Below are positions 54,120-60,512 of a DNA stretch of 64,000 nt, piece by piece. The stretch is from positions 193,219-257,218 of the forward strand of contig JBMOKT010000021.1 of NCBI GenBank assembly GCA_049323895.1. Reading direction: 5' to 3'. Within the stretch, counting starts at the first letter, position 1, and every line of letters starts with the position of its first letter. Position numbers and translations under genes: made by a program. The stretch is from Bacillota bacterium. Lineage in GTDB: Bacteria; Bacillota; Peptococcia; Peptococcales; BICA1-8. The notes under the pieces are model-generated. The model did no database searches, had not been told where the DNA came from, and saw nothing but the letters and a program-made list of their open reading frames with translations.

Positions 54120-54976
54120 ATTCCGTCACCAGAGGAGGATTGGATTGTAGTCGAAAATGCACATGAGTCAATCATCTCACAGGAGCTTTGGGACACAGTG
54201 CAGCAGCTGATGAAGAGCCGCAAACGTGAGAACAGCAGCGGAGAGGTACAGATGTTTGCGGGATTGGTCAAGTGTTCAAAATGCGGCTCTTCACTTAATG
54301 TCAGCTTCGATAAGAAGAAAGGCAAATACACCGGTTTCTCCTGCTGGGTATACAAGAACTATGGCAAGGAACGGTGCACATCTCACGCAATTGGCTGGAA
54401 AACCACCATGAATCAACTTGTGCTGGAGGACATCCGCTGTAATGCAAAGGCGGCGAAGCTGGCGACGTCTAAATACAAGGATATGATTATTGCCGCAAAG
54501 ACTGAAAAGAAAAAGCAGGAAACCGAAAAATGCAAGCGTGAACTGAAAACCATAGAAAAAAGAATCACCGAGCTGGACAAGATTATGAACAAGCTCTACG
54601 AGGACTTGGCACTCGAACAGAAAAGCTCGCCGAGGAGCGCTATCAAGTCATGTCCAAACGCTACGAGGAAGAGCAGGCAGGGCTTAAAGAGCGGAGAAAT
54701 CAGATCACTGAACTGATTTCCCGTGCCGAGTTGGTATACGAAAATATTGATAAATTCCTGCCGATTATACAAAAGTACACCGATATAACTGAGCTGAATA
54801 CACAAATCCTTAACGAGCTGATACAGAAGATTGTGGTCTACGAAAAGACAGATAACCCTGATGGCAGCAAAAGCCAGCGAGTGGACATACATTATAATTT
54901 TATCGGGTATGTGGAAATGAAAGAGATGTTCGGGCTGCCGATGGTCATGGCAATGGCGAAGGAACTCGTCGGATGA
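54120..54976 (+). pseudogene. large serine recombinase, C-terminal two-thirds only, 5'-truncated and frameshifted
   Basis: It begins abruptly with IPSPEEDWIVVENAHESIISQELWDTVQ (recombinase domain), then the zinc beta-ribbon VKCSKCGSSL...CTSH and a coiled coil. The frame changes near 54615 (frame of 54198..54716 to frame of 54650..54976). No resolvase catalytic N-domain is present. Confidence 0.8.
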
Positions 54977-55182: not shown

Positions 55183-56271
55183 ATGAAATATGAGATTGAT
55201 TTCATTGGGATAAATGAAGACTGCAAAGATGCCTCTACCGTCTGCTTTCGTTTCTATTCAAAGAAAAATCAGCGATACATTGTTGGCGTATATGACGGAG
55301 GATTTAAAGCACACGGAGAAGCTCTTGTAAAACTTTTGGATAAATATTACTTCCAAAATGATTCTGAACCGAGCATCGACTTTGTTATATGCTCGCATAG
55401 TGACGATGATCATGCATCTGGGCTTACAGAGATTTTCTACAATTTCTCTGTAAATCATTTAATAATGAATAGGCCTTGGGAATACGCCGATGATCTATAT
55501 GAGTATATAAGTGATGGAAGAAAACTGTTAATAGCCTAAAACAAGAATTGAAGGAAAAGTATAGCTCTATAGCTGCATTGGAAGAAAAGGCTATTGAACA
55601 AGGAACAACTATTCATGAGGGTTTTCAGGGGTCTGAATATTTTTGATGCACTTACAATTCTATCGCCATCAAAAGAAATGTTCCTTGACCTGATAATTGA
55701 ATCCTCTAAAACGCCGCTAACGCCAGTAAGTGAAAGTTCTTCGCTGTTCAGAAAATTTATTGAAGCAGCTGTGACAATGATTGCGGATATTTGGGGGAAG
55801 GACTCTATACGCGAAGGAGAGTCAACGACTGCCGAGAATGAAACTTCTATCGTAATACATGGTAATATGGATGATAGTGGAGAATTCCTCTTGACAGGTG
55901 ATGCAGGAGTTCGTGCATTAAGTGCCTCAGCTGACTATGCGGAGAGTCAAGGAATCGATTTGCACTCTGTCAATTTTCACCAGATTCCTCACCATGGAGG
56001 AAGGCATAATGTATCCCCAAGTGTTCTTAACAGGATAATTGGAGATATCGTAGAAGAAGGCAGTAAGGCAGTCAAAACCGCATTTGTTTCAATCGGGAAA
56101 AACTCTGACCATCCTAAAAAAATGGTTGTTAATGCCTATATCCGTAGAGGAGTAAAGGTGTTCGAAGCGCGGGCTTCATCAAAATGGCATCACCATGGTA
56201 CCCCTGGCAGAGAAGACTATAGTCCGGCAACTTCCCTATCATTTAGTAACCAAGTTGAGAGTTGGGATTGA
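55183..56271 (+). pseudogene. MBL-fold (ComEC/Rec2-like) metallo-hydrolase, interrupted by two opposite frameshifts
   Basis: Metal motif ICSHSDDDHASGL in the first ORF and LLTGDAG...FHQIPHHGGRHN in the second. Both tracked ORFs are in the same frame, but the ~110 nt between them (about 55520-55630) is only open in another frame (KTVNSLKQELKEKYSSIAALEEKAIEQGTTIHEGFQG). Confidence 0.7.
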
Positions 56272-56282
56272 TAGGTAGCACT

Positions 56283-56954
56283 ATGAGTACGCTTAAAAGT
56301 TATAGAGATAATGAGTTAAAATGGTTCATTTTAGCGTATTTGTTTTTAGTAATTGGGAGTAGCAATCTTGACATTGTTAAAAGCACTGATATGGAAGCAT
56401 TATCAAAAATAGAGAGTTTGGTTTCAACGGCTTTGATTTCAGGAGCGATATGTTCTCTGGCATTTGTAATAGATAGTCTTTATTCGCAGTTGATGAAGGA
56501 CACTCTGCTCTATTTGGGTATTACAAAGATGCCTGGGACAACTGTATTTACTCGAATAAAAAATGGGACGTTAAATGATATTCGCTTTGGAATAATACAT
56601 GCGCAAGAAAAGTACAAAGACATTATAGATAATATTCCTTCGAATAAATCAAAAGCTCGTTATGAAAATTCAAATTGGTATAAGATATATGTCAAACATA
56701 AAGAAGATTCTGCGGTCAGTTCAGTGCATAGAGATTTCCTATTATGCAGAGATCTGTACATAACAACGATATCATTGGCAGTTCTAACTGGAATAGCAAT
56801 GGTTGTGAAATTAGTTTCTTTTAGCTGGATTTTATTGGGTTACCTAATTGCTACGGCTATTATAACAAGCTGTTCTGCACATAACAAAGCTCACAGATTT
56901 GTAAATACTGTGATAGCTGTGGATGTCGCAGCAATGGCAAACGATGAGAAGTAG
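56283..56954 (+). CDS. hypothetical 4-TM membrane protein
   Basis: It has two N-terminal and two C-terminal hydrophobic helices around a ~90-aa soluble segment. It follows the MBL gene almost directly (11-nt gap; the longer tracked ORF start at 56262 would overlap it). No recognised domain. Confidence 0.6.
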   Translation: MSTLKSYRDNELKWFILAYLFLVIGSSNLDIVKSTDMEALSKIESLVSTALISGAICSLAFVIDSLYSQLMKDTLLYLGITKMPGTTVFTRIKNGTLNDIRFGIIHAQEKYKDIIDNIPSNKSKARYENSNWYKIYVKHKEDSAVSSVHRDFLLCRDLYITTISLAVLTGIAMVVKLVSFSWILLGYLIATAIITSCSAHNKAHRFVNTVIAVDVAAMANDEK

Positions 56955-56998: not shown

Positions 56999-57859
56999 AT
57001 GTCAAATTTAAACGCTGAAGAATATAAATCATTTGAAAGCATAAAGCATGTTCGCGAAAACGGAAAGAGAATTTTGGTTCGCGCGGGAGCTTGCTGAGGT
57101 TTTAGAATATGTACAATGGAGAAATTTTCAGAAAGTAATTGACCGTGCTATTCTTGCCTGTAAAAACAGCGGATTTGCGGTTATCGACCATTTTGCTGAG
57201 GTCAGCAAAATGGTCGATATAGGCAGTTTAACTCAAAGAAAAATTAGAGAGACTATGAACTTACACGCTATGCTTGTTACTTAATTGTTCAAAACGGCGA
57301 TCCGAGAAAAGAAATTATCGCATTGGGTCAAACCTATTTCGCTATACAGACGCGGTGCCAGGAAGTCCAGGATGCTTTTAATCAGCTTGACGAAAACAAC
57401 AAACGGTTAGTTGTTCGCGGCAATATAAAACATTGGAATCAGCTCCTTGCTGAAGCGGCACACAATGCCGGAGTTATTACCGATGAGGAATTTGCAATCT
57501 TCCAGAATGCCGGATACATGGGCCTTTATGGCGGCATGACGGTCTCCGATATTCATACAAGAAAAGGCTTGAAGAAAAACGATAAAATCCTTGATTATAT
57601 GGGCAGCACAGAGCTGATTGCTAATCTGTTCAGAATTTCGCAGACCGAAGAAAAGCTGAAGCGGGATGAGGTTTCTACGGTGGAAGCCGCAAATAATACC
57701 CATTACGAGGTCGGTGAAAAAATCCGTAAAGCCATTATTGAAATGGGGGCTACCCTTCCGGAAGACCTGCCTGTTCCGGAGAAAAATATTCAGACTATTG
57801 AGCGTGAGGAAATTCGCAAGCTTAGAAATTCGAAAAAGAAGCTGATGCTGGATGAATAA
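56999..57859 (+). pseudogene. dinD: DNA-damage-inducible protein D (DinD) homolog, two frameshifts
   Basis: The conserved DinD-like sequence is spread over three frame segments. These are MSNLNAEEYKSFESIKHVRENGKE (from 56999), FWFARELAEVLEYVQWRNFQKVIDRA... (57048..57284 frame), and [35 protein letters not shown]... (57323..57859 frame). Confidence 0.7.
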
Positions 57860-57930
57860 ACCCGTCGATTTCGACTGGTTTAAATGATAGTTGCCTTCTA
57901 TATTTACTTTTCAAACAGGGGGTTGCAGTT

Positions 57931-58863
57931 TTGGAGCAAAAGAAATCGACTGATTTTAATATCTATTATTTAAATTTCTCAAAAGTTTATGAAATTGCCA
58001 TGATGATAAACAATGTTATTCTTACTAAAATCGAAAAAGATCATAGTAAAAGTTTTGAGGAGCAATATGGCTTTACATCATCAATATCAGCCCAAGGAAC
58101 GAAATCATTTCTTGATGGAATAAAGGCTTCAATATCTTCAGACGCGAGAGAAACATCTTTTTCTTCTTCTAAGGTTATCGAAACATTAGATGTGAAAACG
58201 ACTAAATCCATATTGCTCCGAAGAGTAATTGAACGATGTGCAAATGTTAAAAACTTTGATGAATTAAGTGAAGGAGACCTTGTTAAGATTGATAATGTCA
58301 GGCTTGAATTGTTAGATGAAGAAAGCCTGCGACAGTTTTTAATTCTCAGACGAGATGCTTTAAAAGGGGTTAGGGTTGAAGGCATGGAGATTAATAATCT
58401 CATTAGTTCCATGCTACAAGATTATGCCTACATACTTAAGGGGTCTGTAGCCGACAACAAAAAAGATTCTGCTATTACTGAAATTATTATTAAAATCCCT
58501 CTTGAAATACAAACGGAGTTTGAAAACAAATATAATATAGACGATTTACTTATTGGGCATGTCTCTGTTGTGGGCATGTACAAAGGAATTGTAAAAGAAG
58601 AATTTATATCATCGAATACGTTTACTTATCTTCAGGAAATAGGTATTCGTCAGTCGGCGGACAGTACTTCAAAAATTATTAAGAGTTCCACGCCGCCAGT
58701 TCCAATTGCCGGGAAAGCAGCACAAAAACAAGACGAGTATCATTTCATTGATACTTTAGCAATTATACAGGACGTTGCTTTTAAATTAGAGGAACTGAAA
58801 ACGACTAAATTGCATTGGTGGAACAAGATTGGCATTTGGCTTAGTAATTTGAAGAGGAGTTGA
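57931..58863 (+). CDS. hypothetical 310-aa protein, candidate DolA-like (DUF6414?) partner of the AAA+ ATPase
   Basis: TTG start with AGGGGG 8 nt upstream and no TM segments. Its stop lies 3 nt before the next gene. The family assignment rests only on architecture. Confidence 0.45.
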   Translation: MEQKKSTDFNIYYLNFSKVYEIAMMINNVILTKIEKDHSKSFEEQYGFTSSISAQGTKSFLDGIKASISSDARETSFSSSKVIETLDVKTTKSILLRRVIERCANVKNFDELSEGDLVKIDNVRLELLDEESLRQFLILRRDALKGVRVEGMEINNLISSMLQDYAYILKGSVADNKKDSAITEIIIKIPLEIQTEFENKYNIDDLLIGHVSVVGMYKGIVKEEFISSNTFTYLQEIGIRQSADSTSKIIKSSTPPVPIAGKAAQKQDEYHFIDTLAIIQDVAFKLEELKTTKLHWWNKIGIWLSNLKRS

Positions 58864-58866
58864 AGA

Positions 58867-60411
58867 ATGTCTCTTTATACTTTATATACATATAAAGACA
58901 TCAATGAGTTCCGTCAGATACAGAAAGATTTTGAAATTTATCCATTCATTTTTGCGGAGACTAAAGATCTGTTAGAATCCGAACCTGATTCGGTTATAGA
59001 TATTTCTGCATTAATCTATCTGCTGAGAGTTAACAAAGATAATTGTTATTCCGCACGAATTAATCTCAGAGAGATGACGGAAGATACCAGGATAATCGTC
59101 CATGAATCACTTGCGGACGATGCTATTTTTTTCTTCCCGGATTTGTTTTCGTCGCATGAATCATTCTTTAAAAACAATGATGCTTCAGATGATGCAGAGA
59201 AATCCGCAATTGTATCTCTACTTACTCGTCAATCGATATATGTATATTATAATTCAAATGATTTGGCAAAGATTATTGAATATGCTAATGGACACAACAT
59301 TCCTTTAGCTACTTTTTCCCGTGCATCTGGTGACTTAAAATCGGAACTCGAAAAATTTAATAAGTCTGCAGAAATGGCAATAGTAGATTTAACATCTGTT
59401 TCCCATGCAATAGAAGATAATAAAAATCTTATTTATGCTCTTGAAATGTTTATAAATCAATTTAAGAATTTAAAAGTAATAGCTTTGGCAGCTCAAATAG
59501 ATACCATATTGAGATATTTCCCTTTATATTTCTCTGGACAAGAACCCATCAAAAAATTACTTCCTGACCTTGAAGGCATCTCTGAGGTCGAAGGTCATGT
59601 GGAAAAAGACATAGTTAAATTAACTACTCTATCAAAACCTGAAACTGATGAGTTTATTGAAAAATTTAACCATAACTTAATAGGGCATTCGCACTTCAAA
59701 GACAAATTTAAGTACTATATGAAGAATTTTATTGAACTGAATAAAGCGAAAGAGCAAAAGGTTTTGTCTTTATTTTTGTTAGGTTCTTCGGGGATAGGCA
59801 AAACAGAGGTAGCACGTTTAATTGCTAATGGACTACGACAAGACAGTTATTTAGCTAAGATTAACTTTCAGAATTATAGCAGTCATGATGCATTGAACAG
59901 CTTGATAGGAAGCCCGGCGGGTTATATCGGTTGTGAACATGGTGAACTGAGCGATAAAGTGAAAAAGAGTAAAGTCGGAGTTATTTTGTGCGACGAATTT
60001 GAGAAAACAACACGGCCAGTCTTTTCGTTCTTTCTTGAATTGCTGGAAGAGGGAAAATTCACTGATTCAATGGCCAGAGAATATGAATTGGATGGTTATG
60101 TAATAGTTTTTACATCTAATCTGCAGAATGAGGCTGAATATAAAAAAATTATTCCGCCAGAACTACAAACGAGATTTGACTTGGTCTGTGAATTTGAAGA
60201 GCCAACGTATAGCGAGAAAACACAATTTTTGGAGTTATTGCTTGAGCAGGCGCAATCTAAATTTATGGATCAGTTTTCGAAGATTGAGATGACAGCTGCC
60301 GAAAAAAACCAGCTATTTAATTTTAGTTACTCAAATATAAAAGCTTTGCGTGATATAAAAAAGGTTTTCAATCTACGGTTGATGGATTTCTTTATTTCGA
60401 AAGGCTTTTGA
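58867..60411 (+). CDS. ClpA/ClpB-type (AAA_2) AAA+ ATPase with a unique ~280-aa N-terminal region, candidate DolB-like
   Basis: Walker A LLGSSGIGKTEVARL, substrate-side motif LIGSPAGYIGCEHGELS, Walker B VILCDEFEK, LELLEEGKFTD, sensor VIVFTSNL. This is the D2-like module of Clp/Hsp100 proteins, without the other Clp domains. Confidence 0.65.
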   Translation: MSLYTLYTYKDINEFRQIQKDFEIYPFIFAETKDLLESEPDSVIDISALIYLLRVNKDNCYSARINLREMTEDTRIIVHESLADDAIFFFPDLFSSHESFFKNNDASDDAEKSAIVSLLTRQSIYVYYNSNDLAKIIEYANGHNIPLATFSRASGDLKSELEKFNKSAEMAIVDLTSVSHAIEDNKNLIYALEMFINQFKNLKVIALAAQIDTILRYFPLYFSGQEPIKKLLPDLEGISEVEGHVEKDIVKLTTLSKPETDEFIEKFNHNLIGHSHFKDKFKYYMKNFIELNKAKEQKVLSLFLLGSSGIGKTEVARLIANGLRQDSYLAKINFQNYSSHDALNSLIGSPAGYIGCEHGELSDKVKKSKVGVILCDEFEKTTRPVFSFFLELLEEGKFTDSMAREYELDGYVIVFTSNLQNEAEYKKIIPPELQTRFDLVCEFEEPTYSEKTQFLELLLEQAQSKFMDQFSKIEMTAAEKNQLFNFSYSNIKALRDIKKVFNLRLMDFFISKGF

Positions 60412-60472: not shown

Positions 60473-60480
60473 GAAAAAAA

Positions 60481-60512
60481 AACGTGTAGTTTCAACGACT
60501 ACACGTTTTTTT
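60481..60512. terminator. bidirectional rho-independent terminator
   Basis: AACGTGTAGT ttcaacg ACTACACGTT, flanked by an A9 run and a T7 run. Confidence 0.8.

Follow-up and report, generated by a model that had tools for sequence, protein, structure and literature searches.

The stretch of DNA analysed here (the window) comprises 64,000 nucleotides (nt) of contig JBMOKT010000021.1 from a Bacillota bacterium, and near its end two adjacent genes, which we call A and B (positions 57,931 to 60,411), encode a protein of 310 amino acids (aa) and a ClpB-like AAA+ ATPase of 514 aa. The best explanation as a whole is that the pair is an operon of PDC-M37, a distant sister of the anti-phage system Dodola, in which an unfoldase and its partner would block phage development. 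We give this reading a probability of about 0.6.

Protein A matched the PADLOC model PDC-M37A (PDLC04602) with an E value of 1.1e-89, its residues 7-285 covering positions 3-275 of the 277 in the profile, and protein B matched PDC-M37B (PDLC04605) with an E value of 1.1e-158, residues 3-510 covering positions 3-512 of 518. PDC-M37 is listed in PADLOC-DB v2 as a 'phage defence candidate' (models PDLC04601-04606), and the window pair agrees with it in the order of the two genes, their adjacency and the defence-island setting, with no structural difference. Judged by these matches, the pair is almost certainly a plain member of the family, and the locus adds a further copy to a candidate system already in the catalogue. 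An earlier note on this DNA (the original prediction) had offered two possibilities, Dodola-like or an undescribed relative; the latter gives way to these full-length matches of both proteins. A and B are 100% identical to a 'hypothetical protein' and an 'AAA family ATPase' of a Bacillota metagenome-assembled genome (MAG). Further homologues occur in many Clostridia and Bacilli, in one Parabacteroides MAG and in Methanosarcina barkeri (85% identity). The A family is a small one: among 1.84 billion representatives, 313 clusters belong to it at 50% identity. The sole paper that we found to name PDC-M37, a survey of the Bacillus cereus group for its defence systems, regards it as a PADLOC candidate that is unpublished, and in its supplement identical protein pairs bear the name 'Dodola' from DefenseFinder and 'PDC-M37' from PADLOC.

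The two open reading frames (ORFs) were found as predicted, on the same strand and with a gap of 3 nt in the window sequence (coordinates in Table 1). The Shine-Dalgarno sequence of gene B (GAAGAGGAG) sits within the final codons of gene A, which suggests that the two genes are translationally coupled, and, read from the DNA, A and B are an intact two-gene operon. The ratio of nonsynonymous to synonymous substitution rates (dN/dS) was 0.035-0.06 for A and 0.09-0.125 for B, indicating strong purifying selection on both. These low values, hundreds of homologues and a terminator-like hairpin behind gene B show that A and B are genuine genes and not chance ORFs.

The single Clp/Hsp100 D2-type AAA+ module claimed for the second gene was borne out by the match of Pfam AAA_2 to aa 298-426 of B (1e-22) and by the presence of one Walker A, and the motifs GSSGIGKTE, LIGSPAGYIGCEHGE, VILCDEFEK and FTSNL were all found. 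A PDB sequence search placed aa ~250-505 on the D2 ring of ClpC, ClpE and ClpB (~1e-28). An AlphaFold model of B (predicted local distance difference test score, pLDDT, 78) had ClpC1, ClpA and ClpB as its best Foldseek matches, and searches of the PDB and viral libraries with Foldseek returned only Clp, Lon and AAA+ matches. Among 57 distinct homologues, taken from all three architectural forms described below, the residues kept in at least 95% of the proteins were those of Walker A (G309, G311 and K312), the pore loop (G352-Y353-x-G355), Walker B (D376 and E377), sensor-1 (T416, S417 and N418), the Arg finger (R436) and sensor-2 (R495).

B thus has the same Walker A and B, GYxG pore loop, sensor-1, Arg finger and sensor-2 as the D2 modules of ClpB, ClpC, ClpA and ClpE. 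Unlike these proteins, which have two ATPase rings, it has one ring, no Pfam match to Clp_N or to a second AAA domain, and no ClpP-docking loop, the tripeptide [ILVM]G[FL] not being found in B. It also differs in its obligate pairing with a DolA-like protein and in its scores against curated Clp-class models, which were at most 92 bits where the cut-offs are 885-1900 bits (1232 for ClpB). The novel N-terminal region of ~280 aa had been described as unmatched, and aa 1-278 indeed had no Pfam match even at E<=10, nor did a profile search of the PDB return anything significant. In the AlphaFold model this region is built of alternating beta-alpha units. Foldseek alignments of 540-600 columns to two-ring Clp chains hinted at a degenerate D1-like alpha/beta domain in the N-terminal half, but we make no such claim because the template-modelling score of ~0.42 fits superposition of D2 alone.

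From its Clp motifs, B is most likely a hexameric, ATP-driven Clp/Hsp100 D2-type unfoldase or translocase. Among Hsp100 proteins such a set of motifs belongs to hexameric unfoldases that thread their substrates without feeding a protease. Since the pore-loop tyrosine is present and docking to ClpP would be impossible without the loop, B would remodel proteins rather than degrade them; its invariant pore loop and missing docking loop likewise point away from nucleic-acid attack.

Dodola itself offers the closest validated comparison. In the supplementary table of the preprint by Millman et al. (2022), DolA and DolB have 256 and 362 aa in B. cereus FM1 (verified) and 260 and 391 aa in B. thuringiensis BMB3201, and Table S21 and the construct table of the same work place DolA before DolB. 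Like the window pair, Dodola is an operon of two genes in which the non-ATPase gene comes first, and it has no recognisable effector; DolB and B both carry a single Clp-D2-type AAA+ module with the DEF(E/D)K Walker B, EG.FTD and TSN motifs. When an alignment of all types of A was compared by hhalign with a 39-sequence DUF6414 alignment, a match of 92.5% probability was obtained (E 4.9e-7 over 178 columns), in which A 28-227 falls on DolA 23-208 with ~17% identity and with the common blocks KTT..IL and F.N.Y...DL....G..G. The DolA model was also matched, over nearly the full profile, by 3 of 12 short-form A proteins (2.2e-5, 6.4e-6 and 7.3e-7). B matched the PADLOC DolB model over aa 177-505 (6.9e-30) and was 27% identical to the validated DolB over 200 aa, in the AAA+ module only (E 5e-18; hhalign 99%). 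On these comparisons the PDC-M37 family is very probably homologous to Dodola. Because B is by pairwise scores about as near ClpC and ClpL as DolB, the argument for a common origin rests mainly on the homology of A to DolA and on the same gene order.

The relationship is nevertheless distant. The original prediction had offered DolA and DUF6414 as a possible assignment of the first gene, and this assignment did not hold, as A matched neither the Pfam DUF6414 (PF19952) nor the PADLOC DolA profile at E<=10. A DUF6414 match in Pfam was likewise absent from 18 long-form and 2 short-form relatives of A, and PF19952 was on all 120 of the FM1 DolA relatives listed and on none of the 120 window A relatives listed. 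The window proteins are larger (310 and 514 aa, against 256-260 and 362-391 aa), A having a Trp-rich C-terminal tail in addition and B being ~150 aa longer than DolB at the N-terminus, where no similarity between the two could be detected. B moreover keeps a ClpB-type LIGSPxGYxG pore-loop block that DolB lacks. By these measures PDC-M37 is a distant sister of Dodola and the window pair is not canonical Dodola, so that 'Dodola-like' stands for the family-level kinship but not for the system proper. Comparison with the validated B. cereus FM1 sequences documents the two as distant branches of one two-gene family, and this kinship explains the disagreement between PADLOC and DefenseFinder on such loci. 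Separately, a search of metagenomes for the Streptococcus thermophilus Dodola locus by means of a published cloning primer gave three exact matches, but these had arisen by chance, in an enterobacterial intergenic region.

Linkage of the two genes was assessed in 61 genome loci carrying a relative of A, with identities from 94% down to 25%. B lay directly downstream of A on the same strand in 49 of them, at gaps of -74 to +142 nt (mostly -17 to +8). At the others B was cut by the contig end (two loci), followed two inserted ORFs (one) or belonged to a degraded pair (one), the locus ended within or just after A (seven), or a 105-residue remnant of A stood without B (L039). Save for this one remnant, B was present at every evaluable locus with usable downstream sequence (53 of 53), and it was likewise found on each of the four plasmids and two viral contigs that have A. 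This linkage across genome loci, plasmids and viral contigs makes A and B an obligate two-gene unit. The pair is rare on phages, being found on 2 of 2.9 million viral contigs and on none in INPHARED.

Three architectural forms can be told apart, and they match separate PADLOC sub-models. In the short form, found on plasmids and viral contigs, A has 263-290 aa and B 383-400 aa, the size class of canonical Dodola; the first ~120 aa of the window B are missing, short-form B proteins aligning from aa ~120-148. The window and intermediate form combines an A of ~305-315 aa carrying a C-terminal tail with a B of ~512-520 aa carrying the extra N-terminal subdomain of ~120 aa. In the long form, A has ~415-430 aa and an N-terminal extension and B has ~520-530 aa. 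The long-form branch of A (L041-L059; e.g. L042:9569-10858, L047:9593-10846 and L056:9578-10840) is ~30% identical to the window A, has an extension of ~125-140 aa and no C-terminal tail, and is partnered by B proteins of 517-531 aa. The idea that the tail of A co-varies with the N-terminal subdomain of B fails in part, as the long-form branch has the subdomain and no tail; 'any A extension' does co-occur with the subdomain, but over three to four clades, which are too few to interpret.

The conserved core of A, ~275 aa long, contains six conserved blocks with invariant N28, G115, P190, E198, G209, G215, D274 and Q280. The first gene had been described as lacking any recognisable motif, and no Pfam match was found anywhere in A even at E<=10, nor could a catalytic signature be recognised in the conserved blocks. 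A PD-(D/E)xK-like 'E-N-K' arrangement was discarded, its lysine not being conserved. Foldseek with the A model returned nothing at E<=0.001. At low confidence, the secondary structure of A is helical in the N-terminal part and alpha/beta after it. This agrees with what has been published, from AlphaFold, on the non-ATPase protein of S. thermophilus Dodola, an account in which the DolA and DolB labels appear to be swapped.

What varies between lineages is how this core is extended. The C-terminal tail of the window A, KLHWWNKIGIWLSNLKRS, hardly varies across the window-type clade, and in nine of nine window-type proteins it is the best 14-mer on the Wimley-White interfacial scale (-5.0 to -7.4 kcal/mol). 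Of five control proteins taken from the window, four at no point went under -3.9 kcal/mol, and the fifth, of 1680 aa, reached the range of the tail in two 14-mers only. Intermediate-type tails are cationic and aromatic with a weaker interfacial score, and A proteins of a Bacillaceae branch have a cationic aromatic tail. The long-form extension carries three to four strongly hydrophobic transmembrane segments (11 of 11 proteins checked). Neither short-form A nor the validated DolA has an interfacial tail, and the conserved core has no transmembrane segment and is not hydrophobic. These sequence properties suggest that A carries lineage-specific membrane modules, a new detail. The original prediction had seen no effector such as a nuclease, TIR or pore-former; no effector domain was indeed found, but the likely membrane-interface tail of A had been overlooked.

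Dodola protects B. subtilis and broadly protects S. thermophilus and Lactococcus cremoris, and it is a broad-spectrum system of industrial interest (dairy streptococci). Kinship with Dodola, together with the genomic context, makes it fairly probable that the window pair acts against phages, and suggests that PDC-M37 deserves testing. Chromosomal Dodola gave near-complete protection of cultures at most of the multiplicities of infection tested, which ranged from 0.0005 to 50. This speaks for a non-suicidal mode and against classical abortive infection in the Dodola branch. No published mechanism for Dodola was found in the literature. For PDC-M37 we propose that A, the dedicated partner of B, could make it specific for a protein that comes from the phage or has been altered by it; recognition of this protein by A might take place at the inner face of the membrane through the Trp-rich C-terminal tail, after which A would hand its target to B or would itself be remodelled by B, with a block of phage development as the outcome. 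Such a division of labour, with A as adaptor and B as unfoldase, is a tentative proposal that we would not yet favour, and a membrane site of action, suggested by the sequence properties of A, is more doubtful still. On that view the soluble A core would have independently gained a Trp-rich tail, a cationic aromatic tail or a transmembrane domain of three to four helices, A would be the membrane-facing half and the Clp-like unfoldase would act at the cytoplasmic membrane, a combination that we think rather unlikely. An unfoldase placed there might, for example, extract or unfold a phage protein at genome entry, during membrane-associated replication or assembly, or at holin action. To our knowledge, immunity through a Clp-like unfoldase at the membrane has been described for no defence system. 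A membrane-acting unfoldase, if true, would be the first mechanistic handle on Dodola, and the variable membrane modules of A offer a testable entry point into a Dodola-type mechanism.

Several results weigh against the reading given above. On the Dodola side, the missing DolA profile match of the window A is joined by a BLASTP comparison with the validated FM1 DolA that was not significant (E 0.057 over 26 aa), and a shallow alignment of the window clade gave an hhalign match of only 32 columns, in the F.N.Y...DL....G..G block, at 4% probability. Since the window protein and the profile of its clade show so little, the link to Dodola rests on transitivity at the family level. Nor is B alone proof of a specific kinship with DolB, because in pairwise scores it is about as near ClpC and ClpL. 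An AlphaFold2 prediction of A with 31 close homologues gave an unusable model (pLDDT 46.5), and profiles of the A family built from shallow and deep alignments found nothing significant in the PDB; as structure prediction failed and no fold or PDB match was obtained, the role given to A is a guess. The Eisenberg helical moment of the A tail was not above that of shuffled sequences, and a protein-docking role for the tail is therefore equally possible. Because the short-form systems and the validated DolA lack a membrane module, membrane association is not essential to any shared mechanism. No experimental test of any PDC-M37 system was found in the literature. Finally, decay has affected several of the defence genes around the pair in the window, and the island may therefore be eroding; two Methanosarcina-type contexts had no recognisable defence genes, the pair in this archaeon lying among MtrA, PAS-sensor and MFS genes.

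Other readings of the pair can be weighed against this evidence. That the pair is canonical Dodola, a DUF6414 DolA with a ClpB-like DolB, would account for the shared gene order and tight linkage, for the match of B to the DolB model, for the family-level hhalign result and for the fact that DefenseFinder names some PDC-M37 pairs Dodola. We nevertheless regard it as unlikely: A lacks the DUF6414 and DolA matches and any significant BLASTP similarity to DolA, PF19952 separates the listed relatives of the two proteins completely, both sizes and the N-terminal halves of B and DolB differ, DolB lacks LIGSPxGYxG, and PADLOC keeps separate system models. The absence of any other detectable effector domain in either protein and the membrane modules on A in two of the three architectures would instead suit abortive infection, with A a latent membrane-damaging effector that B either holds inactive or, upon infection, unfolds or oligomerises, so that the cell dies. 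Membrane effectors have many precedents in defence systems. However, short-form A and the validated DolA have no membrane module, the conserved core of A has no transmembrane segment, and the near-complete culture protection by canonical Dodola is unlike classical abortive infection, although it was observed in a different branch of the family; we consider this mechanism improbable, if still worth keeping in view.

The pair might also serve the mobile elements that carry it, as a module for addiction, exclusion or competition between elements, and not act against phages. Integrative and conjugative elements (ICEs), plasmids and integrative elements with integrase/TnpV or primase genes often carry it as cargo; it is patchily distributed and, by cross-domain transfer, extends to Methanosarcina. 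Defence systems are themselves typical cargo of mobile elements, and this context therefore does not discriminate. Roughly half of the independent contexts have known anti-phage genes directly beside the pair, experiments show the related Dodola to be anti-phage, and no small-gene architecture of the toxin-antitoxin kind is seen, all of which leaves a service role for the element with a small chance only. Far less probable is a function in housekeeping or stress proteostasis, with B a stand-alone disaggregase and A its co-chaperone. ClpK and ClpG are mobile heat-survival ATPases, and the best non-defence matches of B are the D2 modules of ClpB, ClpA, ClpK and ClpG, but these scores fall far under the curated cut-offs (92 bits against 1232 for ClpB), and B has a single AAA+ ring, no Pfam Clp_N match, an obligate DolA-like partner and an accessory, island-borne location with a patchy distribution.

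Table 1. Features of the A-B operon and of the preceding island in the window
Feature	Position	Strand	Remarks
Gene A ribosome-binding site AGGGGG	57917..57922	+	8 nt upstream of the TTG start; sequence reading
Gene A	57931..58863	+	310 aa, TTG start; PDC-M37A family; very probably a remote DolA/DUF6414 homologue; ~275-aa conserved core
Gene A C-terminal Trp/Lys/Arg-rich tail, aa 293-310 KLHWWNKIGIWLSNLKRS	58807..58860	+	Candidate membrane-interface anchor or docking peptide
Gene B Shine-Dalgarno GAAGAGGAG	58851..58859	+	Inside the last codons of A, 7 nt upstream of the ATG
Gene A stop TGA	58861-58863	+	Sequence reading
Gene B	58867..60411	+	514 aa, ATG start; PDC-M37B; single-ring Clp/Hsp100 D2-type AAA+ ATPase
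Gene B N-terminal alpha/beta region, aa 1-~280	58867..59706	+	No Walker A; no Pfam or PDB sequence match
Gene B AAA+ module, aa 298-514	59758..60408	+	Catalytic, pore-loop and sensor residues conserved
Terminator-like hairpin	60476..60512	+	16-bp stem and T-run, 3' of gene B; closes the two-gene operon
Helicase-nuclease, 1680 aa	45910-50952	-	PDC-S37 E=0, 1436 bits; Hhe 2.3e-191
Transposase-like ORF, 524 aa	52310-53884	-	By eye
Two overlapping-frame fragments	54198-54716, 54650-54976		Look of a broken large serine recombinase, by eye
PDC-M48B metallo-beta-lactamase-fold gene, split	55183-55539 (profile 2-107), 55594-56271 (profile 143-356)	+	PADLOC
230-aa ORF overlapping the PDC-M48B part	56262-56954		Hydrophobic stretches; no match in any library
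Truncated DinD/PDC-S13 homologue	57000-57859	+	Directly upstream of A; only the C-terminal 178 aa (profile 110-279 of 288) as an ORF

The last ~18 kb of the window form an island of defence and mobile genes (Table 1). The Hhe-like helicase-nuclease named as a neighbour in the original prediction is there, but since its match to PDC-S37 is stronger than that to Hhe it belongs to another candidate family, PDC-S37. The Type III restriction-modification system, named in the same place, lies downstream of the pair (Mod 1.5e-119, Res helicase 5.6e-17). The split PDC-M48B gene is probably, from its two profile fragments, a frameshifted pseudogene, and no PDC-M48A partner was seen beside it. The frame of the DinD/PDC-S13 homologue that starts with an ATG at ~57000 is broken. 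An independent short contig (L064:80-616) has this 178-aa fragment too, again ahead of the identical A-B pair, which places the decay of this gene before that copy.

Elsewhere the pair adjoins an MmeI-type restriction-modification system in an integrase/TnpV element, an NB-ARC/TPR STAND NTPase and a DUF1016 nuclease on a RepA_N/MobA element, SMODS and SLATT_4, or primase/DUF5906 genes. It also occupies an ICE cargo slot between Maff2 and a T4 coupling protein, near ArdA, and occurs in an ORFan island with recombinases and on mobilisable plasmids near a HEPN protein.

Two of the loci sampled are natural knock-outs. In Amphibacillus sp. Q70 (L035:10928-13305) two ORFs of 538 and 254 aa, possibly an insertion sequence element, stand between A and B, and in a Clostridiaceae MAG (L061:9687-11913) both genes are fragmented. 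The latter, the most divergent locus, is a long-form pair in decay and was rejected as a bridge to Dodola; downstream of its remnant, two large ORFs look Wadjet-like by eye. On the chromosome of Methanosarcina barkeri CM1 (L065:10001-12484; also L085 and L086) A is 85% and B 75% identical to the window proteins, and by these identities the copy looks like a recent cross-domain transfer from Bacillota. In two A-family proteins of the representative library (P0253 and P0246) the A core stops mid-domain and runs into unrelated ATPase sequence (P-loop/RepA-like or ABC, by eye); these chimeras are likely truncations, rearrangements or assembly artefacts. A third (P0274) is a clean fusion in which a short-form A core is preceded by an N-terminal region of 455 aa that matches nothing in Pfam.

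Along the window, the cumulative GC skew falls from position 1 to a minimum at ~50-52 kb and then rises, coinciding with the switch from minus- to plus-strand genes. This minimum could be a change of gene orientation at the island boundary or a replication-related switch.

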